Part shown: positions 16,846 through 32,000 of the stretch, piece after piece
How the letters are laid out: every line of letters starts with the position of its first letter
Position numbering within the stretch: the stretch's first letter is position 1
Assembly (NCBI RefSeq): GCF_000299365.1
Contig: NC_018655.1
Location: 630,001-662,000, forward strand
Direction of reading: 5' to 3'
Origin: Candidatus Nitrosopumilus koreensis AR1
GTDB taxonomy: Archaea > Thermoproteota > Nitrososphaeria > Nitrososphaerales > Nitrosopumilaceae
Length of the DNA stretch: 32,000 nt
The notes under the pieces: model-generated
What the model was told of the DNA's origin: nothing
Database searches by the model: none
Seen by the model: only the letters and a program-made list of their open reading frames with translations
Made by a program: the position numbers and the translations under genes

Positions 16846-17005
16846 CGTCGCCAGGTGCTGGTTCTCGGTTCATCTCTTTTTCGTGTGACTCGAAAAATTC
16901 TTTGTGTTCTGATTTTTGATGTTCTCTGAGTTTTTCTAAATTCTCAAACCCCTCATGACACAGATAGCATTTTGGCTTGTGTTCGTCTACTAGAGGAAGT
17001 ACCAT
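16832..17005 (-). CDS. C2H2 zinc-finger protein (57 aa), below ORF-track threshold
   Basis: My translation is MVLPLVDEHKPKCYLCHEGFENLEKLREHQKSEHKEFFESHEKEMNREPAPGDVTVF. It contains the classical C-x2-C-x12-H-x4-H finger. Confidence 0.6.
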   Translation of the reverse strand: MVLPLVDEHKPKCYLCHEGFENLEKLREHQKSEHKEFFESHEKEMNREPAPGDVTVF

Positions 17006-17060
17006 GGTATGATATCTTTGCTTGGCTACTTATTTCTTGAGCCTAACTAAGGAATATATC

Positions 17061-18179
17061 ATGAAAGAGACGCCAGACTGTATGCTAGAGCAGTTGGCAG
17101 GCGATTCTCAGGCACTAGATCGAGCCATAGCAGGAGAAGAACTGTCCTACAAAGACGGTCTTGAGCTGATGAATTATGATAACCTGCATTTACTTGGAGC
17201 AGTAGCTGATGCCCGCAGAAAAGAACTAGTTGGAGATACTGTGACTTTTGCAGCATCCTACTACATGAACTACACAAACGTCTGTGCTGCAAGCTGCCAA
17301 ATGTGTGCATTTTACAGAAAAGAAGGTGCAGAGGATGCTTACACACTAACTCCTCAAGAGATTGAGCAACGAGTTGGAATTGCAAAACAGATGGGGGCAA
17401 CTGAAGTTCACATCGTTGGAGGATTTCATCCAAAACTTCCACTAGAATACTATGAAGACATGATGAGAACCATAAAGAAAAGCCATCCACAACTAAACAT
17501 CAAAGCACTAACTGCTGCTGAGATTTTCTATCTATCAAAACTTACAAAAAATTCCACTAAAGAAATTTTGTCTCGTCTAAAAGATGCTGGACTGGATTCA
17601 ATGCCAGGTGGTGGTGCAGAACTGTTCCATCCAGACATTAGAAAAAAAATTGTTAGAGGTAAATGTACAGGACAAGAATGGCTAGATGTAATTGAAGAGG
17701 CCCATAACATGGGAATCAAAAGCAATGTGACAATGCTTTATGGACACATTGAAAAACCTGAACACATTGTTGATCATCTAATAAAAATCCGTGAACTGCA
17801 AAAAAAGACAAATGGTTTCATCACACTTATTCCTCTAAAGTTTAGCCTTGATAACACCGAACTAGAACAAGAACACTTGGTAAACAATGAGTGCTCTTCT
17901 GTTTATGACCTGAAAGTTATTGCACTGTCTAGACTAATGCTTGCAAATACACTAAACAACATCTCTGTTTATTGGGTGGCATACGGAAAGAAACTAGCTC
18001 AGGTTGCACTATCAAATGGTGGCAGTGATTTGGTTGGAACTGCATTTTCTGAGGAGATTTATCGCGCTGCAGGAAAGGCAACCAGTTCTTCTGTTGATGA
18101 GCTTGCAACTATGGTAAAAGAGATAGGACGTGTCCCTGCGCAAAGAAATACTCACTTTGATATATTGAAGACATTTTAG
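17061..18179 (+). CDS. radical SAM enzyme of the futalosine-pathway MqnC/MqnE (CofH-like) family
   Basis: CAASCQMCAF (CxxxCxxC), GGFHP, PGGGAELF and MLYGHIE are typical of the MqnC/MqnE family. ATG at 17061; the track start at 17022 is TTG. Confidence 0.85.
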   Translation: MKETPDCMLEQLAGDSQALDRAIAGEELSYKDGLELMNYDNLHLLGAVADARRKELVGDTVTFAASYYMNYTNVCAASCQMCAFYRKEGAEDAYTLTPQEIEQRVGIAKQMGATEVHIVGGFHPKLPLEYYEDMMRTIKKSHPQLNIKALTAAEIFYLSKLTKNSTKEILSRLKDAGLDSMPGGGAELFHPDIRKKIVRGKCTGQEWLDVIEEAHNMGIKSNVTMLYGHIEKPEHIVDHLIKIRELQKKTNGFITLIPLKFSLDNTELEQEHLVNNECSSVYDLKVIALSRLMLANTLNNISVYWVAYGKKLAQVALSNGGSDLVGTAFSEEIYRAAGKATSSSVDELATMVKEIGRVPAQRNTHFDILKTF

Positions 18180-18207
18180 TTTCGCAATTCTAAATTCTGT
18201 TGGTACC

Positions 18208-18306
18208 ATGGCAAAGAAAAAGACATTAAAAAAAAGAGAAAACCTTCAATGTCACTGGCATTGTCCTTGCGATGATTGCAGAGCAGCTGAAGAGCAGTCT
18301 TTTTGA
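18208..18306 (+). CDS. possible tiny Cys-rich protein (32 aa)
   Basis: My translation is MAKKKTLKKRENLQCHWHCPCDDCRAAEEQSF. It fits exactly into the gap between flanking genes. Very short, so weak. Confidence 0.25.
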   Translation: MAKKKTLKKRENLQCHWHCPCDDCRAAEEQSF

Positions 18307-18309
18307 GAA

Positions 18310-18615
18310 CTAGTCTAGATGTTTTTTAATAGAGTCTACCTTTTCTTGCATCTTTAGGTGCTTGTCTCTTCGTGAATCAATCTTGATTATGACTTCGACC
18401 CTGTCGATTCCTAGATTGTGAACAGTCTCACTCATCTGCTTTGTTGCCTTGTAAATGGTATCCATGTCATCTGACTCTAAAATTGTCCCCATCGGGTTTA
18501 TTTCGTATTTGAGGTTCTCGATTTTTTGAATCGATTCTATTGCCTTTGCAATGTAAAAACTGGCGCTGGTTGTTCTGGTAGCTATTGGATAGATGCTAAT
18601 CTCTGCATGAATCAA
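18310..18615 (-). CDS. MTH1187/YkoF-family (UPF0045) protein
   Basis: 101 aa. AEISIYPI...INPMGTILE matches the family pattern. Confidence 0.8.
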   Translation of the reverse strand: MIHAEISIYPIATRTTSASFYIAKAIESIQKIENLKYEINPMGTILESDDMDTIYKATKQMSETVHNLGIDRVEVIIKIDSRRDKHLKMQEKVDSIKKHLD

Positions 18616-18653
18616 CTTATTTTCTGTGTTTAATTGGGATTAAAAAGTTTGAA

Positions 18654-18947
18654 TCACTCTGCAGGTTTCTTTTCTGTTCTTTTTGCACTGCCTTTTCTGC
18701 GCCTTGCTCCAAAACTTATCAAAACCAACAAGAATCCTACGCCAATTAGCAATCCATACAGTAACTGTAATGCCTGATTCTCGTCTTCAGCTACCATCAA
18801 GTCAATAATCTCTTCTTCCGTCATTCCAGCTTGTCCTGTAGGTGGCTCACCTGTTGTCAATCCTATTATGATTCCTGCAGCAATCATGACAATGCCTCCT
18901 GCAAAAATTTTCTTGTCAATTAGTACCAATTTGACATTGTTTTGCAT
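18654..18947 (-). CDS. small membrane protein (2 TM)
   Basis: Two hydrophobic helices flank an acidic loop, followed by a basic tail RRRKGSAKRTEKK. Confidence 0.55.
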   Translation of the reverse strand: MQNNVKLVLIDKKIFAGGIVMIAAGIIIGLTTGEPPTGQAGMTEEEIIDLMVAEDENQALQLLYGLLIGVGFLLVLISFGARRRKGSAKRTEKKPAE

Positions 18948-18997
18948 CTATCGTATATTAGGAAATTGGTTTTTGTTTTTATTTGAAATAGTTTGAT

Positions 18998-19288
18998 CTA
19001 AAATCCTTCTGGTGGCTTTTGTACAAATACGTTGCAGACAAGTGCATCTGTTTTTTTGTCTCTGTATTGAACATTGCATGAAACAAATTTTCCTTTCAGT
19101 GCTCTTTCTAAATCCTCTTTTGTCTTTTCTTCGTATTGTGGTTGTTGTGGATCGTCAATCTTGCTCATGATTATTTTTTCTGTCTTGCCATACTCCTCTT
19201 TGTTGTCTTTTCTGACATGACTTACAAGCAACTCAAATGCGTTGTTAGTCAAAATTCCCACAACCGGACCGCCTATTCCGTCACCCAT
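18998..19288 (-). CDS. hypothetical protein
   Basis: 96-aa ORF. No motif recognised. Confidence 0.5.
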   Translation of the reverse strand: MGDGIGGPVVGILTNNAFELLVSHVRKDNKEEYGKTEKIIMSKIDDPQQPQYEEKTKEDLERALKGKFVSCNVQYRDKKTDALVCNVFVQKPPEGF

Positions 19289-23119: not shown

Positions 23120-25312
23120 ATGGTAAAATTCAAGTCAACCAGTGAGGTCCTGAAAATTATCAAAAACAAGGATCAGATCCGAAACTTTGGTGTTATTGCT
23201 CACGTTGACCACGGAAAGACTACCATGAGTGACAGTCTCTTGGCTTACTCTGGAATTATCGCTCCATCAGCTGCTGGAAAGGCACTTGCAATGGACTTTG
23301 ATAAAGAAGAGCAACAAAGAGGAATTACAATTTATCAGGCAAACGTTACTTTGCTGTTTTCACAGAAAGGAAAAGAATATGTCATTAACATGATTGATAC
23401 CCCTGGACACGTAGACTTTAGTGGAAGGGTAATTCGTAGCCTTAGGGCAATTGATGGTGCAGTGGTTGTATGTGATGCTGTTGAGGGTATAATGACTCAG
23501 ACTGAAACTGTAACTAGAATGGCACTAGAGGAGAGGGTAAAACCTGTATTGTTTATCAACAAAGTAGACAGACTCATCAAGGAACTGCGATTGACTCCTG
23601 AAAAGATGCAGGCACAATTAGCAGAAGTCGTTTCAAACTTTAATCAATTAATTGACACATATGCAGAACCTGAATACAAAGAAAAGTGGAAGGTATCAAT
23701 TCAGGATGCAAGTGTCACATTTGGTTCTGCAAAGGACAGATGGGCAATTAACATAGATTTGATGAAAGAAAGAGGAATCACATTCAAAGATGTCATTGAT
23801 GCATATACAAATGAAAAAGTAGAAGAACTAGTAGAGAAAGCACCACTAGCTGATGCAGTTCTTGGAATGGTTGTAAAGCATCATCCTGCTCCACACGAGG
23901 CAGTCCAGTACAGAATTCCACAAATCTGGAAAGGTGATTTGGAGTCTGATGTTGGCAAAGCACTACTTGCATGCGATGATACTGGTCCGACAATTATGAT
24001 GATTGTAAACATGGTCTTAGATCCTGCAGCAGGTCCTGTTGCAATTGGAAGACTGTTCTCTGGAACAATCAAAGACGGACAAACTATCAACATTATAGAT
24101 GAAAAACGTGAAGGAAGAGTTCAGTCTGTAAACTTTTTCATGGGAAACCAAAGAGAGCAAGTTGGTGAGCTTGGCGCTGGAAACATTCCTGCATTATTAG
24201 GATTAACTGAAGCTAGAGCAGGAAACACATTATCATCTGTTAAGGGAATTCAAATGTTTGAAGGTGTAAAGTATGTCTCTGAACCTGTTGTTCAAGTTGC
24301 AATCGAGCCAAAACATCCTAAAGATTTACCTAAACTAGTCGAAGTTCTAAAACAACTAACAATTGAGGATCCTAACCTTATCGTAAAGATTGATGAGGAG
24401 AGCGGTGAGACAATTGTTGCAGGAATGGGTGTGTTACACCTTGATGTTGCCACTCACCGTATCCAGGATGCCAAAGTCGAGATTGTTACATCTGAACCTC
24501 TGATTAACTACAGAGAGACAGTAAAGTCTGCATGTGAGCCAATCATGGCAAAATCTCCAAACAGACACAACAAGATCTTCATGAAAGTCGAGCCACTAGA
24601 GCCTGCAATTGCAAACATGTTAAGAACAGGCGAAATCAGCGACATGAAAGACAAAAAAGTTGTTGCTGACTTGCTAAAGGGCGCTGGATGGGATACTGAT
24701 ACAATTAAGAGAGTGATGAAGTTTGATTCTCGCGGCAATGTCTTGATTAACGGAACAAAAGGTGTTCAATTTGTACAAGAGTCAACTGACTCTATTAACT
24801 CTGGATTTGAAGAAGTAATGAAAGAAGGACCTCTCTGCAGAGAGCAGATGAGGGATTGTAAATTCACGTTTACTCACTTTGTACCTCACGAGGACACTGC
24901 ACACAGGGGTTTGTCTCAACTGGGACCAGCTTCTCGTCGTGCATGCATGGGTGCATTGCTTACTGCAGGAACTGCAGTGCTAGAGCCAACTCTGGCAATT
25001 GAGGTTCGTGTGCCAACTGACTTGGTTGGAAACGTCGCCACTGTTCTTTCTGGAAAACGTGGCAAGGTCTTGGACATGTCACAAAAAGGCGCATCAAGTA
25101 TCGTTACAGGTGAGATTCCAGCCTCTGAGACATTTACATTGTCTGAAGAGATGAGAGGCCAGACTGCAGGACGTGCTACATGGAATACTTCCTTTAAGGC
25201 ATGGACTGAGGTTCCAAAATCAATGCTTGCAACAGCTGTTGCTGATATCAGAAAGAGAAAGGGACTAGCACCAGATCCTCCAAGAGCAGAAGAGTTTATT
25301 GATAAAGAGTAA
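23120..25312 (+). CDS. fusA: translation elongation factor aEF-2
   Basis: GTPase motifs AHVDHGKTT, DTPGH and NKVDR. Diphthamide loop HEDTAHRG. 730 aa. Confidence 0.97.
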   Translation: MVKFKSTSEVLKIIKNKDQIRNFGVIAHVDHGKTTMSDSLLAYSGIIAPSAAGKALAMDFDKEEQQRGITIYQANVTLLFSQKGKEYVINMIDTPGHVDFSGRVIRSLRAIDGAVVVCDAVEGIMTQTETVTRMALEERVKPVLFINKVDRLIKELRLTPEKMQAQLAEVVSNFNQLIDTYAEPEYKEKWKVSIQDASVTFGSAKDRWAINIDLMKERGITFKDVIDAYTNEKVEELVEKAPLADAVLGMVVKHHPAPHEAVQYRIPQIWKGDLESDVGKALLACDDTGPTIMMIVNMVLDPAAGPVAIGRLFSGTIKDGQTINIIDEKREGRVQSVNFFMGNQREQVGELGAGNIPALLGLTEARAGNTLSSVKGIQMFEGVKYVSEPVVQVAIEPKHPKDLPKLVEVLKQLTIEDPNLIVKIDEESGETIVAGMGVLHLDVATHRIQDAKVEIVTSEPLINYRETVKSACEPIMAKSPNRHNKIFMKVEPLEPAIANMLRTGEISDMKDKKVVADLLKGAGWDTDTIKRVMKFDSRGNVLINGTKGVQFVQESTDSINSGFEEVMKEGPLCREQMRDCKFTFTHFVPHEDTAHRGLSQLGPASRRACMGALLTAGTAVLEPTLAIEVRVPTDLVGNVATVLSGKRGKVLDMSQKGASSIVTGEIPASETFTLSEEMRGQTAGRATWNTSFKAWTEVPKSMLATAVADIRKRKGLAPDPPRAEEFIDKE

Positions 25313-25434
25313 AAATAGAATCCCCCCATTCCGTTCCTAATTCACTGCTGTTTTTCGTTATGACTAGAGAATGATTTGGATTATGATTTGTTGCAATCTT
25401 TTGAAATACTAGGTATTGAATAATTTTTTATTAA

Positions 25435-25935
25435 ATGAAACCTATTACAATTTTCAGATTTTTTTCACCAATCAGATATATTGAAATTATTGCAGTTCTT
25501 TCTGCTTTTCAAATTTTAGATATTGCTTGGCAATCAGACGTTATCATCTTCAATTTTTTCTTTCCGGTAATTATCGGAAGTGCTGCATTTGATGCAGTGT
25601 TTCACAAGGATGGTTTCAAAGCTGGTTTCAAAAGTGCAGGGATAAAATACTATACAGGAATGGGGATCCAATTTGTAGGAAGCGCTGTTTCAGCATTAGC
25701 CAGTTTCAATACAGATCCAGAAAAAATTCCAGTCATTATCATGTATACTGTGCTTCTGTTAGGAATAGGCGGAGCACTAGAAGGATTTCATTTTTTTTCT
25801 GAAAAGAAACTCAAAAACATTGTATTAACACCTGTTCAAAAAATATTGGCATTAATTGGACTTACTCTTCTGATATTTTTCTTTGGGCTTTACACAGTTC
25901 TTGAATTAGTTCCACGCACACCATGGTTTAATTGA
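25435..25935 (+). CDS. integral membrane protein (casposon cargo)
   Basis: 166 aa with about 5 hydrophobic helices. No motif recognised. Confidence 0.6.
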   Translation: MKPITIFRFFSPIRYIEIIAVLSAFQILDIAWQSDVIIFNFFFPVIIGSAAFDAVFHKDGFKAGFKSAGIKYYTGMGIQFVGSAVSALASFNTDPEKIPVIIMYTVLLLGIGGALEGFHFFSEKKLKNIVLTPVQKILALIGLTLLIFFFGLYTVLELVPRTPWFN

Positions 25936-25942
25936 TTATGTT

Positions 25943-26986
25943 TTGACACTCAAAAATCAGAAAAACCACTACAATGTAAAATTCCTTAAAGGCTACGGTC
26001 ACTCTATCTCGGTAAAAGATTCCAAAATAATTCTAAAGTCAAACCACGACCCATTTTCTCCACCAGAACAAGAAGAATGGTTTGTCAAAAACATGCCATA
26101 TGAGAAAATAGTTCTTTCAGGCAAAGGATATGTCTCAACTGAAGCATTATCATTACTTTCAGAGAACAATCGCAATGTCATTTTGTTAGACAATCACGGA
26201 AAGCCTGTTACATTCTGCAATGGCATGATGGATTCTCTCACTGCCACAAAATACAGAATGGCACAATATGATACATTCCGAAATCCTGAGAAATGTGAGT
26301 ATCTGCGTAAGCAGATTATATCTGCAAAGAAAGAATCTCAACTAAAGTTATTACGATTAATTGGAAGTGAAATTTCAGAACTTCCAGATTCAGAACACAT
26401 TTCAGCCAAAGTCTATTGGACAGAATTTGCAAAATTTATCCCTGAAAAATATCAATTTCATTCCAGAAACCAATCTCACATCACATCATCAAAAAATAAC
26501 GCAACTGACATCATCAATGCTCTGCTAAACTACGGATATTCTGTACTTGCAGGAGAAATTTCCAAGTTTGTATGTGGATTTGGTCTTGACCCGTACCTTG
26601 GATTCATGCATCGTTCTCATACAGGATTTCAGCCATTGGTGTATGATATCATAGAACCGTTCCGATGGTTAGTGGATTATACTGTTTATTCCATGGCAAA
26701 TCATAGTTCCACAAGACAGAGAATTAAACTCAAAGAGTATAGTTTTACAAAAGATGGAACTGTAGTTTTGGAATATTCTTTGATCAAGAGATTTTTGGAG
26801 ATGTTAGAAAGACAGTTTTCTCAAGAGAGAAAGTATTCGTTTAGACATGGAAAGAAGACAAAGGATGGTTTGAAATCCGTTCAAGAAATTACTGTTGTAA
26901 AGATTATAATTCAAAATTTAGTAGAATACAGTACAGGAAAACAAAAAAGTTTAGAATCTAATAATTTTGCTTTTTTCGATTTCTAA
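25943..26986 (+). CDS. cas1: Cas1-family integrase (casposase)
   Basis: Cas1 core motifs NATDIINALLNYGYSVL, GLDPYLGFMH and LVYDIIEPFRWLVDY. TTG start in the track; the first ATG is about 50 codons in. Confidence 0.9.
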   Translation: MTLKNQKNHYNVKFLKGYGHSISVKDSKIILKSNHDPFSPPEQEEWFVKNMPYEKIVLSGKGYVSTEALSLLSENNRNVILLDNHGKPVTFCNGMMDSLTATKYRMAQYDTFRNPEKCEYLRKQIISAKKESQLKLLRLIGSEISELPDSEHISAKVYWTEFAKFIPEKYQFHSRNQSHITSSKNNATDIINALLNYGYSVLAGEISKFVCGFGLDPYLGFMHRSHTGFQPLVYDIIEPFRWLVDYTVYSMANHSSTRQRIKLKEYSFTKDGTVVLEYSLIKRFLEMLERQFSQERKYSFRHGKKTKDGLKSVQEITVVKIIIQNLVEYSTGKQKSLESNNFAFFDF

Positions 26987-27359
26987 ACAATGGAAAAATA
27001 ATGACAATTACAGAAATTATTGCAAATACTATTCCATATGGAAATGGAAAAATCATTTGAAATCCAAAAAATGCTATTATGCTAGCAATGATTGCAAGTA
27101 CACGGTTTGTTGTAGTTTGTGAGGAATTTTTCATGACAGCACCGGCAATTGTTAATCCAAGACCTACAACTACAATAACTGCAGAAATGGTTTGTATCTG
27201 ATAAACTGTTTGACATCCACTGCTTATGTTTGTGGAAATTACCTGACCAAACTGTCCCACAAATGAGCCACAATTAGAAACATCAGGTTGAATCGTAAAA
27301 TACACAAAAACTCCAATAACCATCAAAATAATACCAATAATCAGAATTGGGGTGTTCAT
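26958..27359 (-). CDS. integral membrane protein (4 TM, casposon cargo)
   Basis: 133 aa with four hydrophobic helices. Preceded by repeated promoter motif copy 1. Confidence 0.6.
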   Translation of the reverse strand: MNTPILIIGIILMVIGVFVYFTIQPDVSNCGSFVGQFGQVISTNISSGCQTVYQIQTISAVIVVVGLGLTIAGAVMKNSSQTTTNRVLAIIASIIAFFGFQMIFPFPYGIVFAIISVIVIIFPLFRNRKKQNY

Positions 27360-27375
27360 AAAAATTAGAATATTA

Positions 27376-27389
27376 GTATGAACTTAAGC
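27376..27389 (-). promoter_or_regulatory. repeated promoter-like motif, copy 1 (GCTTAAGTTCATAC on minus strand)
   Basis: Exact 14-mer gtatgaacttaagc, 16 nt upstream of the ATG at 27359. Confidence 0.55.
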
Positions 27390-27402
27390 GTTTAGAAATA
27401 AT

Positions 27403-27597
27403 CTAATATTGTCTATATTTCTGAAAAGATCCTTTTCTTTTACAGTTGGCACATTTTGCATTCTTTGACCAGCCCTCAACTGACCAACCATGACCAATTC
27501 TAACTGTGATTACTCTGTCACAGTTTGTGCAGATTACTTTTACCTGATAGGATTTCTTTGGGTCAGGTTCTCCTTTTAACCACTCTTTGAGCCCCAC
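27403..27597 (-). CDS. small four-Cys zinc-ribbon protein
   Basis: CTNCDRV ... CANCKRKG in 64 aa. GTG start. Preceded by motif copy 2. Confidence 0.55.
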   Translation of the reverse strand: MGLKEWLKGEPDPKKSYQVKVICTNCDRVITVRIGHGWSVEGWSKNAKCANCKRKGSFQKYRQY

Positions 27598-27613
27598 AAT
27601 AGAATTTCATTGT

Positions 27614-27633
27614 GTATGAACTTAAGCATATTG
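27614..27633 (-). promoter_or_regulatory. repeated promoter-like motif, copy 2
   Basis: gtatgaacttaagcatattg, identical over 20 nt to copy 3. Lies 16 nt upstream of the start at 27597. Confidence 0.55.
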
Positions 27634-27643
27634 AAGTTTACAC

Positions 27644-27940
27644 TTAGGGGAAAATCTTATTCAATTCTGGGCTTTCCTCAATCTGTTTTTCTAGATTCAC
27701 ACACATATCACGATTAAAATCAGGATATTTCCAACAAAACTCTCTTGCCTCTTGGATGTATTCTAGTTCGCATTTGATCCATTCATCTCCTGATGCTCGC
27801 AAAATTTGGCATTCAGTATGACCAGTAGATAGTCTCTCTGCCCATTGTTGTTTTTGATATTCCTCATTGGCAATATATGCAATAATTGCAATTAGAAGTA
27901 TTCCTCCAACAACCCCAAGAATAACTTGAATTCGATTCAC
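27644..27940 (-). CDS. N-terminally anchored small protein
   Basis: 98 aa with the TM helix ILGVVGGILLIAIIAYI, then a Cys-containing soluble part. GTG start. Preceded by motif copy 3. Confidence 0.55.
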   Translation of the reverse strand: MNRIQVILGVVGGILLIAIIAYIANEEYQKQQWAERLSTGHTECQILRASGDEWIKCELEYIQEAREFCWKYPDFNRDMCVNLEKQIEESPELNKIFP

Positions 27941-27955
27941 AATCTCATTTGTTTA

Positions 27956-27975
27956 GTATGAACTTAAGCATATTG
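27956..27975 (-). promoter_or_regulatory. repeated promoter-like motif, copy 3 (in divergent intergenic region)
   Basis: gtatgaacttaagcatattg, 15 nt upstream of the start at 27940. Also 35 nt upstream of the plus-strand gene at 28011. Confidence 0.55.
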
Positions 27976-28010
27976 GCAAAGGAAATAAACTGGCAATCTA
28001 TGATCATATT

Positions 28011-28808
28011 ATGAAATTTGTACTATTGTTAATTTTGATAGGGATGATTACTCCTGTATTTGCACAAGAATCATCTTTTGATGAACAATTAATGAATAGT
28101 ACAGAATATTCGAAAATCATAGATAGGTTATACCTCCTTGAAAATGAAAATAAACAACTTGAAAATTTAATTCATAATTTTGATGATGGAATTTCTTCAA
28201 AATTATCTAAAATTGATGAATCTTTAATTCAATCTGGAGATGTTGCAAACAAATCCCTTTGGTTGGGACTCTATATTTCCATGGTATTTGCAGGAATTGC
28301 CATTGCAGCAACAATAATTTATTCTATAAAATTAGGATCTCAAACCAAATTAATTGAAACTGATATCAAAACACGGATCAGACCAATTTTAAGTCGAAAA
28401 GAATTACGAAAAAAAATTACTAATTCAACAGAACAACACGTAGGTGAATTACACACACTTTCTAAACAAAAAGCTCTATTTCATTTTCAGAATACAGGTA
28501 CATTGCCTGCGGTAAATATATCTCGGAATTATTATGCTGAGATTAGAGAAACACCTTCCAATGAAATCAAACTAGATCCTACAAAATATGTGGATGCCTT
28601 CAAAATGGCCTCATTGGCCCCAAATGAATACTATAGTACAGATATTTTTTGGCTTGATCCATGTTTTGATGATGCAGTGGATAAAAATACATGTTATTTT
28701 GGATTGATAATTTGGTATCATGATTCAAAAGGTACAAGATATCACTATCACATAGAAGGATATTTTGACAAAGGAGAAATGATGTTAAATCACGTAGATA
28801 TGGATTAA
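28011..28808 (+). CDS. membrane protein with signal peptide, coiled-coil-like segment and one TM helix
   Basis: N-terminus MKFVLLLILIGMITPVFAQE and mid-protein TM helix LWLGLYISMVFAGIAIAATIIY. No motif recognised. Confidence 0.6.
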   Translation: MKFVLLLILIGMITPVFAQESSFDEQLMNSTEYSKIIDRLYLLENENKQLENLIHNFDDGISSKLSKIDESLIQSGDVANKSLWLGLYISMVFAGIAIAATIIYSIKLGSQTKLIETDIKTRIRPILSRKELRKKITNSTEQHVGELHTLSKQKALFHFQNTGTLPAVNISRNYYAEIRETPSNEIKLDPTKYVDAFKMASLAPNEYYSTDIFWLDPCFDDAVDKNTCYFGLIIWYHDSKGTRYHYHIEGYFDKGEMMLNHVDMD

Positions 28809-29071
28809 ACTTCACAATAAGGGCATTCGACTTCTTCTTTGTGTGATTTAACCAAACTTACAAACTGTGACAAACATTCAGTACAAACATACTTCAGTCT
28901 TTTTCTTTTCTGAGTCTTATAATACATTGCCATAATCCAATTCACTCTTTGAGTTCTAAAATTTCCTTCCTCATCATAATAGTAGATGTGCCATCGCTTC
29001 TTTGTGGATGTTTTGTGTCTGTGGTTTCCTCGATGTGTGTATGTTTTTGACACTGAAACAACTAGTTTCAT
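28805..29071 (-). CDS. small basic four-Cys protein
   Basis: 88 aa. CTEC ... CPYC at the C-terminus, Lys/Arg/His-rich. Co-directional with and downstream of the wHTH gene. Confidence 0.55.
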   Translation of the reverse strand: MKLVVSVSKTYTHRGNHRHKTSTKKRWHIYYYDEEGNFRTQRVNWIMAMYYKTQKRKRLKYVCTECLSQFVSLVKSHKEEVECPYCEV

Positions 29072-29115
29072 GCTACCTCTATGCTACTTCAAACTAATAA
29101 GAACAGATTATGATG

Positions 29116-29730
29116 TTATTTTTTAATTTTAAATTCAGGACGGTCAACATTTAATGAAAATTCTAATTTTCTACTTGATAATATCTGCATCATGACGGGA
29201 TAAACAATTTTGTAATCTTTGTCTTTTCTAACCAAATTAATGATTTTTCTAATTCTTTTTTTGAGTTTTATTCTTTCTTTTTTCAAAGATTCCTCACTAG
29301 GGTTCTCTAATGATTCCAATAAGGACAATTGAGAAATATTTTGTAATGCTAATTGTATTTGAAACAATGCTTCACCAGTTTTTTGCATTGTAGATAATTC
29401 AGAATATCTTTTTTCCAACATTTTTGTATCGTGCTCATCAAACATTGACCACACTAAAACAGATTTTCTCAAATCGTCTGGATTGATTTGCTCTTTTCCC
29501 TCATTAAATGAATACTGTGTTTGTCTCCCAACTTTATTTACAAATATCAGTCCTCTTGAAATTAGTGATTGTATTGCTCTTTGAGCAGTCTTTTTTGCCA
29601 TGTATTTTGGAACAGAAAGATCTAAAATTCCATTATGATGAATATCGGGATTTTTTTGTATAATTTCCAGTATTTTGAACTCGTATTGAGTCATTTCAGA
29701 AGAATTTGGTCGTAATTGTGCGTAATCCAT
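29116..29730 (-). CDS. winged-helix transcription regulator
   Basis: N-terminal EFKILEIIQKNPDIHHNGILDLSVPKYMAKKTAQRAIQSLISRGLIFVNKVGRQTQYSF is a MarR/wHTH-like pattern. C-terminal helical region. Confidence 0.65.
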   Translation of the reverse strand: MDYAQLRPNSSEMTQYEFKILEIIQKNPDIHHNGILDLSVPKYMAKKTAQRAIQSLISRGLIFVNKVGRQTQYSFNEGKEQINPDDLRKSVLVWSMFDEHDTKMLEKRYSELSTMQKTGEALFQIQLALQNISQLSLLESLENPSEESLKKERIKLKKRIRKIINLVRKDKDYKIVYPVMMQILSSRKLEFSLNVDRPEFKIKK

Positions 29731-29731
29731 A

Positions 29732-29755
29732 GTAGGTTAACCTACCACTGGTAGG
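29732..29755. promoter_or_regulatory. operator-like triple half-site GTAGG-ttaa-CCTAC-cactg-GTAGG
   Basis: Perfect 14-bp palindrome gtaggttaacctac (29732..29745), overlapping a second inverted pair cctac/gtagg (29741..29755). Starts 2 nt upstream of the wHTH start codon, in the divergent promoter region. Confidence 0.5.
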
Positions 29756-29785
29756 CTATACTTGCATTATAGTGTATAGTATGTT

Positions 29786-30019
29786 ATGACTTTGAAGAAA
29801 ATCAAACCCAAAGACATGATTTTAGAACCAGTAATTACTGACTTTGGAAACAGAAAGGTATCGCAACAGAATTTTTCAAAGATTGTTGCTCTGCCAAAGA
29901 CTGCATTGGATAACTGTGGCATAACCACAGATGTCAATGTAAAACTGGTTCAGTTTGATGGAGAAAAGTTTCTGACACTTTCTCCAGTAATTGAAAAAGG
30001 AGGTGATAAAACTGAGTGA
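29786..30019 (+). CDS. AbrB/MazE/SpoVT-like DNA-binding protein
   Basis: NFSKIVALPKTALDNCGITTDVNVKLVQFDGEKFLTLSPV resembles the looped-hinge-helix pattern (compare MazE [38 protein letters not shown], from memory). Confidence 0.5.
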   Translation: MTLKKIKPKDMILEPVITDFGNRKVSQQNFSKIVALPKTALDNCGITTDVNVKLVQFDGEKFLTLSPVIEKGGDKTE

Positions 30020-30346
30020 GACCCTCTATCCTCCATTTTTAAAATGGGGGCAGTACACATCTCAAGACTCTGAGAATCCTGACACCATAGAGCTCAAGGT
30101 TGCTGAAACCAATACCTTTGAGACAGAATTCTCAATCAATGTACTAGCATTGATTAAAGAAAAAAGACATGGAAAGAATACAACGTTAAACTGAAAAACC
30201 ATGATTCAGCAAATGCTTCTTTCCTAAACCAGTGGAACAGGATTGCAAAGTCACTTCACAAAGGAGACATACTGGTTCTCAAGACGTGGCTTGGAACATC
30301 AAAGAATGGAAGAAAAATCAGGAGGTACAGTCTAGAGAAACTCTAG
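29991..30346 (+). pseudogene. hypothetical gene in two frames joined at an A6 run
   Basis: Frame of 29991..30194 (track ORF) plus the frame of 30158..30346, which is 62 open codons (RKKTWKEYNVKLKNHDSANASFLNQWNRIAKSLHKGDILVLKTWLGTSKNGRKIRRYSLEKL) with no ATG/GTG/TTG. The switch is at A6 30160..30165. Confidence 0.45.
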
Positions 30347-30378
30347 ACTCTCCTTTTTTTGACAATAGTGATGGTATT

Positions 30379-30695
30379 ATGGCAGAAGACAAAGATAAAC
30401 TTTTGAAACAGTTAGACGCACTCAAGATTTTTCCAAACAACAAACTAGTAAGAGAATTAAAGAATCAAATTAAAACAAAATTAAAAAATTAGAAATTACA
30501 AAACCCATTCCACCAAAGAAAAATCCAAACCTTACACGCTCAAACAAACTAAAGCGATATCACAACTACATCAGGCAAATCAGAAACAACTTTCCAAATC
30601 TAAAATACAACCAGATAAGAAAACAGTTTGCAAAACGAAAGCGTGGCGATGACGTATCAATTCCTGATGCAGTATGGCAGAATCCGTCCCCGTAA
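30379..30695 (+). pseudogene. hypothetical gene upstream of polB in two frames joined at an A6 run
   Basis: ATG 30379 gives MAEDKDKLLKQLDALKIFPNNKLVRELKNQIKTKLKN*. From 30474 another frame is open for 73 codons to 30695 with no ATG/GTG/TTG (…LEITKPIPPKKNPNLTRSNKLKRYHNYIRQIRNNFPNLKYNQIRKQFAKRKRGDDVSIPDAVWQNPSP). The switch is at A6 30483..30488. Confidence 0.45.
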
Positions 30696-32000
30696 CTGAC
30701 TGCAAGAATCTGAGAAGAGTATTTACAAAAAAGCCTCAGAACAGAGATCCTGCAACATCGCACAAGAGAAGAGTCTATGCAATTGATACAGAAACCTATA
30801 ACGGCAACATCTTTCTGATTGCCGACTCTGATGGGAGATTCTTGGATAAAATCACGCCAAAATCATGCCTAGACTGGCTGTTTTGCAGAAAATATGAGGG
30901 TTCGTGGTGCTTTTTTTATCATCTCGGGTATGATGCAGAAGTAATTCTGAAACTTTTAGGCTCTGAACTATTCAAGTACAAAAATACTGGAAGACTGAAA
31001 TTCTCCTTTGAAAATTACACCATAGAGTATCATCCAAACAAGTGTCTGAAAATATCAAAGGGACATCACTCTGTGATATTTTATGACATTGCGCAATTCT
31101 ATCATGCAAAACTATCTGATGCATATCAAAACAATATCAGAAAACTACCTAAAGAGTATCTTGACATAAAGTCAAAAAGGAGTCAGTTCTCAATTACATT
31201 TTACAAAAGAAACACAAGAAAAATCAGAGATTACTGCATCACAGACTGCAAACTGACAAAAGAGTTGGCAGAGCACTGGATAAAATTATTCCATGATGCA
31301 TTTGGATTCTATCCTGCAAGATGGGTATCCTCTGGATATCTGGCAGAAAAAGTCTTGATCAACAACGGAATCAATTTCCCAAAGTTTGATGATGTTCCAT
31401 ATGATGTTCAGGAGATGGCGTTTTCATGTTACTATGGAGGACGATTTGAAATTACAAAGCGTGGATTTATTGGAACTGCTTACAAGTATGATATCAACTC
31501 TGCATATCCCCATTCCCTGACAAAGATTCCTGACCTGACCAAAGGACGATGGATTAAAAGAAAGTCAATTCACAAAGATGCAAAACTTGGATTCTTTAGG
31601 ATTATTGCAGACATTCCAGACTGCAAGTATATTCCACCGTTTCCGTTTCGTACCAATGGAATTATTATTTTTCCTAGTGGAAAGTTTGAAACGTATGTTA
31701 CATTACATGAACTAAAAGTTGCAGATTCAAAACATTACAAAATTTTGGATTCATATCAGTTCATTCCAAACGGCAAGCCAGTCTATCCTTTTGAGAAATT
31801 TGTTCATTCAATGTATGATAAAAGACTGGAACTAAAGAAAGACGGAAACCCATTGCAGTTGCCAATCAAGATAATTCTCAATTCAATCTATGGAAAGACT
31901 GGTCAGAAAGTCAATAGAATAATGGGAAATCTGTTCAATCCTGTGATTTTTGCAAGTATTACAGGCATGACTCGTGCCTGCCTGTATGACTTTGTGATGC
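30674..32000 (+). CDS. polB: family B DNA polymerase, protein-primed (phi29-like) type, 3' end beyond window
   Basis: Not in the ORF track because it has no stop in the window. My translation from ATG 30674 gives ExoI YAIDTET, ExoII FFYHLGYDAEVIL, ExoIII DYCITDCKL, motif A YDINSAYP and motif B KIILNSIYGKTG. 442 codons are open to the window edge. Confidence 0.92.
   Translation, partial: MAESVPVTDCKNLRRVFTKKPQNRDPATSHKRRVYAIDTETYNGNIFLIADSDGRFLDKITPKSCLDWLFCRKYEGSWCFFYHLGYDAEVILKLLGSELFKYKNTGRLKFSFENYTIEYHPNKCLKISKGHHSVIFYDIAQFYHAKLSDAYQNNIRKLPKEYLDIKSKRSQFSITFYKRNTRKIRDYCITDCKLTKELAEHWIKLFHDAFGFYPARWVSSGYLAEKVLINNGINFPKFDDVPYDVQEMAFSCYYGGRFEITKRGFIGTAYKYDINSAYPHSLTKIPDLTKGRWIKRKSIHKDAKLGFFRIIADIPDCKYIPPFPFRTNGIIIFPSGKFETYVTLHELKVADSKHYKILDSYQFIPNGKPVYPFEKFVHSMYDKRLELKKDGNPLQLPIKIILNSIYGKTGQKVNRIMGNLFNPVIFASITGMTRACLYDFVM

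Follow-up and report, generated by a model that had tools for sequence, protein, structure and literature searches.

Casposons owe their importance to an integrase of the Cas1 family, which is thought to be ancestral to the CRISPR adaptation machinery. Common to the elements of casposon family 1 are cas1, polB and, upstream of the latter, three or four small genes, and their published target, the most frequent one though not the only one, is the gene of elongation factor EF-2 (PMC4046053; PMC6563490). Their Cas1 proteins form a separate clade in Krupovic 2014, in an alignment that includes NitSJ-C1, a near-twin of the element described here (PMC4046053). Family 2, represented by AciBoo-C1 of Aciduliprofundum boonei and by Methanosarcina mazei, the source of casposase structure 6OPM, has in common with the present element the Cas1 integrase, terminal inverted repeats (TIRs), a target site duplication (TSD) of ca. 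13–14 bp and site-specific integration next to a leader (PMC8464041; PMC6614799), but only family 2 has a PolB of the RNA-primed type, a C-terminal helix-turn-helix (HTH) extension of the casposase, tRNA genes as targets and an HNH nuclease (PMC4046053; PMC6614799). None of these four traits is found in NitAR1-C1, the element in question. The DNA analysed was a stretch of 32,000 nucleotides of Candidatus Nitrosopumilus koreensis AR1 (contig NC_018655.1, positions 630,001 to 662,000; hereafter the window), in which the block from position 25311 to the window edge represents, with hardly any doubt, the left four fifths of NitAR1-C1, a family 1 casposon inserted in the last codons of aEF-2. NitAR1-C1 and its target site are already in the literature, as is the biochemistry of its integrase, and it is from this element that the biochemically studied casposase of family 1 comes. 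The present find is thus a rediscovery, because both gene and element coordinates match those given in Beguin 2019 and in Table S1 of Krupovic 2014.

By published gene coordinate, the window equals CP003842.1 630001-662000 of Ca. N. koreensis AR1, and it aligned with 0 mismatches to contig AJVJ01000024.1 of Nitrosopumilus sp. AR (locus L001; window position = L001 + 15942). The casposase gene is reported at CP003842.1:655943..656986 (Beguin 2019, PMC6614799), i.e. window 25943..26986 plus 630000. The published element lies at NC_018655 655308..663492, i.e. window-equivalent 25308..33492, with a length of 8,185 bp, TIR of 68, repeat of 21 and EF-2 as the target (Krupovic 2014, BMC Biol 12:36, PMC4046053). 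The Cas1 sequence occurs on two NCBI contigs. In exact-sequence look-up, Cas1 was identical to AFS80663.1 / WP_014963050.1 and PolB to AFS80673.1, and six further products were identical to N. koreensis AR1 proteins in the range AFS80662-AFS80674, the products corresponding to NKOR_03860 to NKOR_03920. The first-pass annotation, made from the letters of the window, had read the block as the left ~6.7 kb of a casposon, and this agrees with the result: TIRs and a TSD bound the block, the Cas_Cas1 and DNA_pol_B_2 profiles match, and the window carries 6,690 of 8,179 bp. Re-finding NitAR1-C1 from raw sequence shows that such a first-stage reading works, while nothing is added to the field.

Assuming a 13-bp TSD, the complete element extends from window position 25311 to window-equivalent 33489 (8,179 bp), of which 25311..32000 (+ strand, 6,690 bp) is in the window, as located by the identity with L001, the L001 gene list and the published coordinates. 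The remaining 1,489 bp beyond the window comprise the rest of polB, the right TIR and a gene for a 314-aa (amino acid) SLFN_AlbA_2 protein. When the ends were compared without gaps, the left TIR was 65 nt long (25311..25375, + strand), starting AAAAATAGAATCCCCCC and identical in 65/65 nt to the right TIR (L001 17483-17547); as a template, the TIR end reads 3'-TTTTTATC... De novo repeat search returned inverted arms at L001 9353-9449 and 17467-17563 (97 nt at 87% including flanks), and a direct repeat, TTTATTGATAAAGAGTAAAAA, with copies 8,192 bp apart. Extension of the contig to the right, proposed as a check in the first pass, thereby yielded both the perfect 65-nt TIRs and the direct repeat. 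The first pass had also taken 25313..25434 as the candidate TIR sequence; a TIR is indeed present there, though its extent has to be corrected to 25311..25375. Likewise, the element was taken to begin at 25313, right after the EF-2 stop codon, when its start under the published 13-bp TSD is 25311.

The left TSD copy, ATTGATAAAGAGT, is at 25298..25310 (+ strand), and the second copy at L001 17548-17560 (window-equivalent 33490-33502). This 13-mer was established as the true TSD by sequencing of in vitro integration products (Wang 2021, PMC8464041), and the ends at 25311/33489 with 8,179 bp differ accordingly from the 8,185 bp and 21-bp repeat of 2014. The left junction reads ...GAGTTT / ATTGATAAAGAGT / AAAAATAGAATCCCCCC... 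and the right junction ...GGGGGGATTCTATTTTT / ATTGATAAAGAGT / AAAAAGGCAG... Directly 5' of the TSD is the “leader” TTT (25295..25297, + strand), and Wang 2021 describes, for the NitAR1-C1 casposase, a minimal 3-bp 5'-TTT-3' leader together with an ATAA ruler inside the duplicated segment (PMC8464041). The target is formed by the last 16 nt of the aEF-2 gene (23120..25312, + strand; TIGR00490, E 2e-249), the TSD spanning the last four codons and the first base of the stop codon. EF-2 is unchanged by the insertion and its reading frame is left intact, because the last T of the TSD is followed by AA at the start of the element, which restores the TAA stop codon. An insertion that is bounded by TIRs and TSD and preserves EF-2 can thus be read directly from the nucleotide sequence.

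The casposase gene (25943..26986, + strand) encodes a Cas1-family integrase of 347 aa with a TTG start and no HTH extension. The full-length Cas1 homolog called at this position in the first pass was confirmed by the suggested profile search (Pfam Cas_Cas1 E 8e-43; TIGR00287 E 6e-40), and the nearest solved structure was 6OPM (E 1e-26), identified as the M. mazei casposase (PMC8464041). Residues D110, R113, K117, K184, Y197 and Y234 are at their published positions, and R113, K117, K184, Y197 and Y234 were mutated in Wang 2021 (PMC8464041). Over 1,000 database relatives were obtained at E ≤ 1e-10; the best 120 were 67-88% identical, and those of the 120 with an organism name all came from Nitrosopumilus, Nitrosarchaeum or related Nitrosopumilales/Thaumarchaeota genomes and metagenome-assembled genomes (MAGs). 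In vitro, the identical protein AFS80663 carries out site-specific, concerted integration of TIR ends at a leader-TSD target with a 13-bp stagger (PMC6614799; PMC8464041), joining the TIR 3' ends to both target strands at the borders of the 13-mer (PMC8464041).

The second hallmark gene, polB (30674..32000, + strand), encodes a protein-primed-type family B DNA polymerase, of which the first 442 of 594 aa are in the window (Pfam DNA_pol_B_2, the model of organellar and viral polymerases of this kind, E 2e-26), in agreement with the compact polymerase of this type that had been recognised from 30674 to beyond the window edge. Motifs DTE (Exo I), YDAE (Exo II), YCITD (Exo III), DINSAYP (A) and KIILNSIYG (B) are encoded within the window. 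Motif C, located beyond it, is FATDS, which does not constitute a defect since FATDS is conserved in the PolB family.

For comparison, five related loci were fetched: a Logan run contig (L083), Nitrosopumilus sediminis AR2 with casposon NitAR2-C1 (L084), Nitrosopumilus sp. K4 (L085), N. cobalaminigenes (L086) and a Nitrosarchaeum MAG (L087). PolB was full-length in L084, L086 and L087, and cut off in L083. The three small genes directly upstream of polB (77, 113 and 105 aa) have homologues in the same order in L083, L084, L086 and L087, so that the shared core order is an AbrB-like protein of 63-77 aa, a protein of 110-114 aa, a protein of 105-109 aa, and PolB of 593-594 aa. The first gene of this block encodes the 77-aa protein (29786..30019, + strand), which bears the UniRef name SpoVT-AbrB domain protein and had no Pfam match; its homologues in L083, L084, L086 and L087 are 50-67% identical and at the equivalent position.

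The other two core genes are disrupted in the deposited sequence. The ~113-aa gene (30003..30343, + strand) was recognised by tblastn of intact homologues, which aligned in two pieces, 30003-30167 (frame 3) and 30158-30343 (frame 2), the gene being split by a 1-nt shorter A-run near 30159-30167. At this run, the NitSJ-C1 copy (SJ, locus L002) has A7, and the AR1 copy A6. The annotated product is here 63-67 aa, when homologues are 102-119 aa. Similarly, the 105-aa gene (30379..30695, + strand), which overlaps the polB start by 22 nt, aligned by tblastn in pieces 30379-30486 (frame 1) and 30474-30692 (frame 3), and is interrupted near 30477-30486, where again the A-run is shorter by 1 nt. Two coding sequences that had been counted among the ORFans of the block in the first pass, i.e. 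those upstream of polB, are therefore to be removed from that class as frameshifted conserved core genes. The 105-aa family includes 372 database homologues, nearly all of 101-113 aa, with the invariant C-terminal motif IPDxxWQNPSP and invariant residues Y61, H62, Y64 and S104. It is this basic 105-aa protein that was put forward in Krupovic 2014 as the candidate terminal protein (PMC4046053). A search of its profile against PDB sequences returned nothing meaningful. The AF2 model of the ~113-aa protein (pLDDT 57) has the order strand-strand-strand-helix-strand-strand, which is that of the oligonucleotide-binding (OB) fold, and the Foldseek list consisted mostly of OB-fold single-strand-binding (SSB) proteins, none significant (best E 0.06, TM-score 0.34-0.38); the protein may, on the basis of this model, be an OB-fold SSB protein for strand-displacement replication. 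A profile match of the ~113-aa protein to the ParM fusion protein 4XHP (E 6e-5) was regarded as spurious.

The AR (L001) and SJ (L002) sequences were compared over 21 kb, with the result of five differences, all of them 1-nt changes in the length of A or T runs and no substitution. Two of these are at window ~30159 and ~30482, and two others are outside the element. Inside it, NitSJ-C1 and NitAR1-C1 differ in nothing but the length of two A-runs, by 1 nt each. These changes at ~30159 and ~30482 correspond to the two single-nucleotide deletions that Krupovic 2014 had noted in NitAR1-C1 as compared with NitSJ-C1 (PMC4046053). Because every AR/SJ difference is a homopolymer length, the two frameshifts in the deposited AR1 sequence are most likely sequencing errors, as judged from the sequence comparison. 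Programmed frameshifting at the two A-runs was ruled out as the leading explanation, as relatives all encode both genes in one frame. The AR1 deposit thus probably contains two homopolymer errors that truncate core genes, and for cloning the SJ reading is advised.

The alternative that stands up best takes the frameshifts as real. NitAR1-C1 would then be a casposon by descent and a dead fossil, with two pre-polB core genes inactivated, including that of the terminal protein candidate, and the copy could have been integrated or excised by its own casposase, yet be unable to replicate itself. This is consistent with the splitting of both core genes over two frames here, when all relatives have them intact (102-119 and 101-113 aa), with the two deletions relative to NitSJ-C1 known since Krupovic 2014 (PMC4046053), and with the annotation of the AR1 proteins AFS80671 (63 aa) and AFS80672 (86 aa) as truncated. 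However, purely homopolymer-length differences over 21 kb are the signature of sequencing error and not of decay, the TIRs (65/65) and TSD (13/13) are identical, and Cas1 and PolB are intact, for which reasons we consider a dead fossil unlikely.

Several further points speak against the interpretation of the block as a family 1 casposon with the functions proposed below. The deposited sequence has frameshifts in two of the conserved core genes, and if they are real, the copy may be replication-defective. There is no sign of present mobility of NitAR1-C1, as the SJ and AR copies share one site and are identical save homopolymer lengths. The exact element end is ambiguous by 5 nt from the sequence, because a run of AAAAA follows both TSD copies. 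The sequence scores of Cas1 against solved structures are close, with E 1e-26 for casposase 6OPM versus E 4e-24 for the CRISPR Cas1 4N06. The AF2 model of the 105-aa protein (all-helical, pLDDT 87, pTM 0.46) matched no solved fold, and protein priming, the function of this protein as terminal protein and the regulatory roles are all inferred.

In the mechanism that we propose for NitAR1-C1 as a casposon, integration follows the published experiments on the identical protein: the casposase joins the TIR ends to the target at the borders of the 13-mer, guided by the TTT leader and the ATAA ruler, with the same integration chemistry as in Cas1-Cas2 spacer insertion. The element would copy itself by means of its own protein-primed family B polymerase, with the block upstream of polB (77-aa AbrB-like, ~113-aa and 105-aa proteins) presumably supplying accessory replication functions and the 105-aa protein serving as the putative terminal protein. 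Expression may be controlled by the divergent 204-aa winged-helix gene, the AbrB-like protein and a palindrome between their genes, and each of three minus-strand cargo genes may be driven by a promoter-like 20-nt motif of its own (see below). Self-synthesis by protein-primed replication was put forward in Krupovic 2014 as a hypothesis, by analogy (PMC4046053).

The systems that serve for this analogy, i.e. Polinton/Maverick elements and the protein-primed linear plasmids and viruses (phi29, haloviruses His1 and His2), resemble NitAR1-C1 in having TIRs and a protein-primed-type PolB (DNA_pol_B_2), and the lifestyle of the casposon is proposed by analogy to theirs. Unlike in Polinton/Maverick elements, the integrase of NitAR1-C1 is of the Cas1 family and not retroviral-type, and no capsid or packaging genes were detected. 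The block could accordingly be thought of as a virus or linear plasmid in its integrated state, whose replication would be by protein priming of a free linear molecule and which would use Cas1 for lysogeny only, with no transposon involved, considering that TIRs and a protein-primed PolB are hallmarks of linear plasmids and viruses, that the PolB is reported as sister to those of His1 and His2 (PMC4046053), and that small proteins of membrane or secreted type are the products of several cargo genes. Against such an origin, 10 cargo and core proteins returned no PHROG family at E ≤ 0.001 (two weak matches, E 0.003 and 0.006, were to PHROGs of unknown function), there was no Pfam capsid or packaging match in an element of merely 8.2 kb, and capsid homologues were not found in Krupovic 2014 either (PMC4046053), which leaves a virus or linear plasmid very improbable.

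Compared with a CRISPR-Cas adaptation module, NitAR1-C1 has a homologous integrase, staggered attack at both borders of a repeat-sized segment beside a leader, and a molecular ruler, according to Wang 2021 (PMC8464041), but it is without Cas2, array or effector genes, and the element itself is inserted instead of a spacer. The arrangement typical of the adaptation module, cas1 beside cas2 and a repeat-spacer array, was not present. The statement of the first pass that the 32 kb contain no cas2, other cas gene or array was correct, and on the basis of precomputed Pfam hits of called genes, cas2 and other cas genes were likewise absent from the 5 kb to the right of the window. When the whole window was scanned for direct repeats, no repeat-spacer array was seen, the only matches being chance pairs at 2567 and 12504. 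No tRNA was identified in the whole window by ARAGORN, and no Rfam family in 25000-32000 at gathering thresholds. The notion that Cas1 is the remnant of a decayed CRISPR-Cas adaptation module in a coincidental PolB neighbourhood is practically negligible, since, in spite of the score in the generic cas1 equivalog TIGR00287 (137 bits with a cut-off of 71.7) and the database name “CRISPR-associated endonuclease Cas1”, there is no cas2, other cas gene or array across 37 kb, Cas1 and PolB are inside one unit whose TIR and TSD boundaries refute it, the Cas1-PolB pairing recurs in other genomes, and the identical Cas1 protein integrates TIR ends site-specifically in vitro (PMC6614799; PMC8464041).

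Between the left TIR and the core block, NitAR1-C1 carries several genes in addition to cas1. Upstream of cas1, NKOR_03860 encodes a 166-aa hydrophobic protein (25435..25935, + strand), ending 7 nt before cas1. Downstream and on the minus strand are the open reading frames of a 133-aa membrane protein (26958..27359), a 64-aa zinc-ribbon-like protein (27403..27597) with two CxxC pairs and sub-threshold Zn-ribbon matches only, and a 98-aa protein with an N-terminal hydrophobic segment (27644..27940). These four cargo genes are element-specific, with no homologue in the other fetched casposons and no Pfam, PHROG or PADLOC family; for the cargo proteins in general, no usable PHROGs or PADLOC family were obtained, and Pfam matches were sub-threshold only. 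The 265-aa protein (28011..28808, + strand), with an N-terminal hydrophobic and an internal transmembrane segment, has a 57% identical homologue in the L087 casposon only. An 88-aa basic zinc-ribbon protein (28805..29071, - strand; sub-threshold Zn_ribbon_8) is found full length and 77-80% identical in L084 (NitAR2-C1) and L087.

The 204-aa putative winged-helix DNA-binding protein (29116..29730, - strand; sub-threshold HTH_24 and Penicillinase_R) is encoded divergently to the replication module. Divergently transcribed genes for 178-230 aa are at the equivalent position in L083, L084, L086 and L087, and tblastn showed no homology between these and the 204-aa protein. Two small regulators had been named in the first pass, and this designation can be kept with reserve only, considering that the 204-aa protein gave sub-threshold winged-helix matches alone, and the 77-aa protein is SpoVT-AbrB by its UniRef name, with no Pfam match. 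The 55 nt that separate the divergent 204-aa and 77-aa genes contain the palindrome TAACCTACCA-C-TGGTAGGCTA (29738..29758, no strand), an inverted repeat with 10-nt arms at 90% and a candidate operator; on alignment of the divergent intergenic region across five casposons, the palindrome sequence was not conserved.

A promoter-like 20-nt motif occurs on the minus strand upstream of three cargo genes: CTAAACGCTTAAGTTCATAC (27376..27395) is 16 nt upstream of the 133-aa gene start, and CAATATGCTTAAGTTCATAC is present at 27614..27633 and 27956..27975, preceding the GTG starts of the 64-aa and 98-aa genes by 16 and 15 nt, respectively. The 14-mer core, GCTTAAGTTCATAC (minus strand), has exactly 3 copies in the window versus 0.21 expected, and the 25 kb of the window that hold housekeeping genes are free of the motif. 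With the consensus CAAyAyGCTTAAGTTCATAC and 15-17 nt upstream of start codons, the motif is placed where an archaeal TATA box and B recognition element (TATA/BRE) would be expected for leaderless mRNA, and it is probably the promoter of leaderless mRNAs. The same motif with the same start-codon spacing was found in casposons L084, L085 and L087, and also outside identified casposons in L030 and L044, in variable regions of other Nitrosopumilus genomes; it is possibly specific to mobile or variable genes. The remaining genes of the window are ordinary, i.e. those of superoxide dismutase, SNF2-type helicase, FAD oxidase, DnaJ, CofH, VitK2 biosynthesis and others.

NitAR2-C1 and the casposons of N. 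cobalaminigenes and the Nitrosarchaeum MAG are similar to NitAR1-C1 in their Cas1 (82-85% identical), PolB (64-85% identical), EF-2 target and core order, and different in that nearly all of the cargo between cas1 and the core is not shared, and in that both small core genes are intact in the other family 1 casposons. Orientation in N. cobalaminigenes (L086) is as in NitAR1-C1, whereas in L084 and L087 the polB end adjoins EF-2 and the orientation relative to EF-2 is thus opposite. The Logan run contig L083 encodes a Cas1 of 88% identity, and its cargo includes a 412-aa TIR_2-domain protein (L083 2782-4020) with weak ThsB-like matches, a defence-type cargo absent from NitAR1-C1. In Nitrosopumilus sp. 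K4 (L085 9454-16288), a Cas1 of 84% identity is located behind a TIR tip beside EF-2 and next to a NERD-domain gene, with no PolB in the locus and no right TIR within 10 kb, and L085 appears to be a decayed casposon that has retained an intact cas1.

The EF-2 locus and its flanks of 10 kb were compared in 80 further Nitrosopumilaceae species genomes, those closest to AR1. A full cas1 together with polB was found within 10 kb downstream of EF-2 in 0/80 loci, and nine loci have no TIR tip, the next chromosomal gene beginning 99-291 nt past the stop codon of EF-2. In addition, L029 has the exact leader and TSD followed by unrelated DNA. The casposon block is hence not core genome; its conservation at this locus in all relatives had been named in the first pass as one of the outcomes that would count against a casposon. 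The genes of the AR1 distal flank (158 aa, ferredoxin, 99 aa, 230 aa and methyltransferase) were not downstream of EF-2 in the 80 relatives, so the region downstream of EF-2 is variable. Empty EF-2 sites exist in relatives, though not base for base, the distal flank being common to no relative.

A TIR-like tip follows at least 15 of 77 EF-2 ends in the other genomes, and some of the EF-2 loci with such tips hold cas1 or reversed polB fragments. In AR1 itself, the DNA just past the right TSD (L001 17561-17600, window-equivalent 33503-33542) starts AAAAAGGCAGTCCCCCC and is read as AAAAAGGCAGTCCCCCCTCC..., and in alignment this sequence matches the left TIR tip next to the Cas1 remnant of K4 (L085) and the EF-2-adjacent tips of L023, L067 and L025, which belong to a casposon lineage other than that of NitAR1-C1. 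The tip has the appearance of an old relic TIR, on the EF-2 side of which the newer insertions would always lie, and no inverted partner was present in L001 (3.5 kb available). The same kind of TIR tip follows the L087 casposon, which has the opposite orientation. Because tips follow both casposons, repeated insertion at the EF-2-proximal repeat beside an old relic is suggested, and it may be the copy of the 13-bp repeat nearer to EF-2 that new casposons enter time and again, pushing older elements outward. In N. adriaticus, family 1 casposons have been reported in tandem (PMC6563490).

By tblastn, a homologue of the 204-aa gene (25-35% identity, E 1e-13 to 1e-19) is a chromosomal neighbour of EF-2 in ca. 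30 of the 80 genomes, e.g. L003 12327-12824 and L062 12421-12969. This winged HTH (wHTH) gene is 99-291 nt past the stop codon in nine genomes, and elsewhere is displaced by 0.8-9 kb, often with a TIR-like tip. Because it is homologous to the winged-helix gene of the casposon, two origins are considered for the neighbour: either the host has domesticated a casposon gene, which would then be a former casposon regulator, or the casposon acquired its regulator from this chromosomal gene. Taken jointly, a reading in which the aEF-2 3' end is a polarised landing pad, the wHTH neighbour is domesticated, and the ~113-aa protein is an OB-fold SSB is tentative and rather doubtful.

Two small units bounded by TIRs and TSD were observed at the EF-2 site of the compared loci. 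The 3.0-kb unit at L065 12191-15184 has 63-nt TIRs (92%) and a 13-bp duplication, no cas1 or polB, and a cargo of one wHTH gene, two DUF2589 genes and an HhH (helix-hairpin-helix) protein. The 1.6-kb unit at L017 6439-8046 has short TIR tips and a TSD, encodes a sodium:dicarboxylate symporter, and is likewise without cas1 and polB. Both are candidate non-autonomous casposon derivatives or deletion relics, and as small cassettes lacking cas1 and polB they may be mobilised in trans. A shallow literature search found no published description of non-autonomous casposons. The EF-2 relics and small derivatives in other Nitrosopumilaceae could be mined for casposon turnover. In L084, finally, the EF-2 call (17003-19222) is 739 aa versus 730 aa and ends inside the casposon TIR, so that in this genome EF-2 seems to have lost its own stop codon to the insertion and to have gained nine codons.

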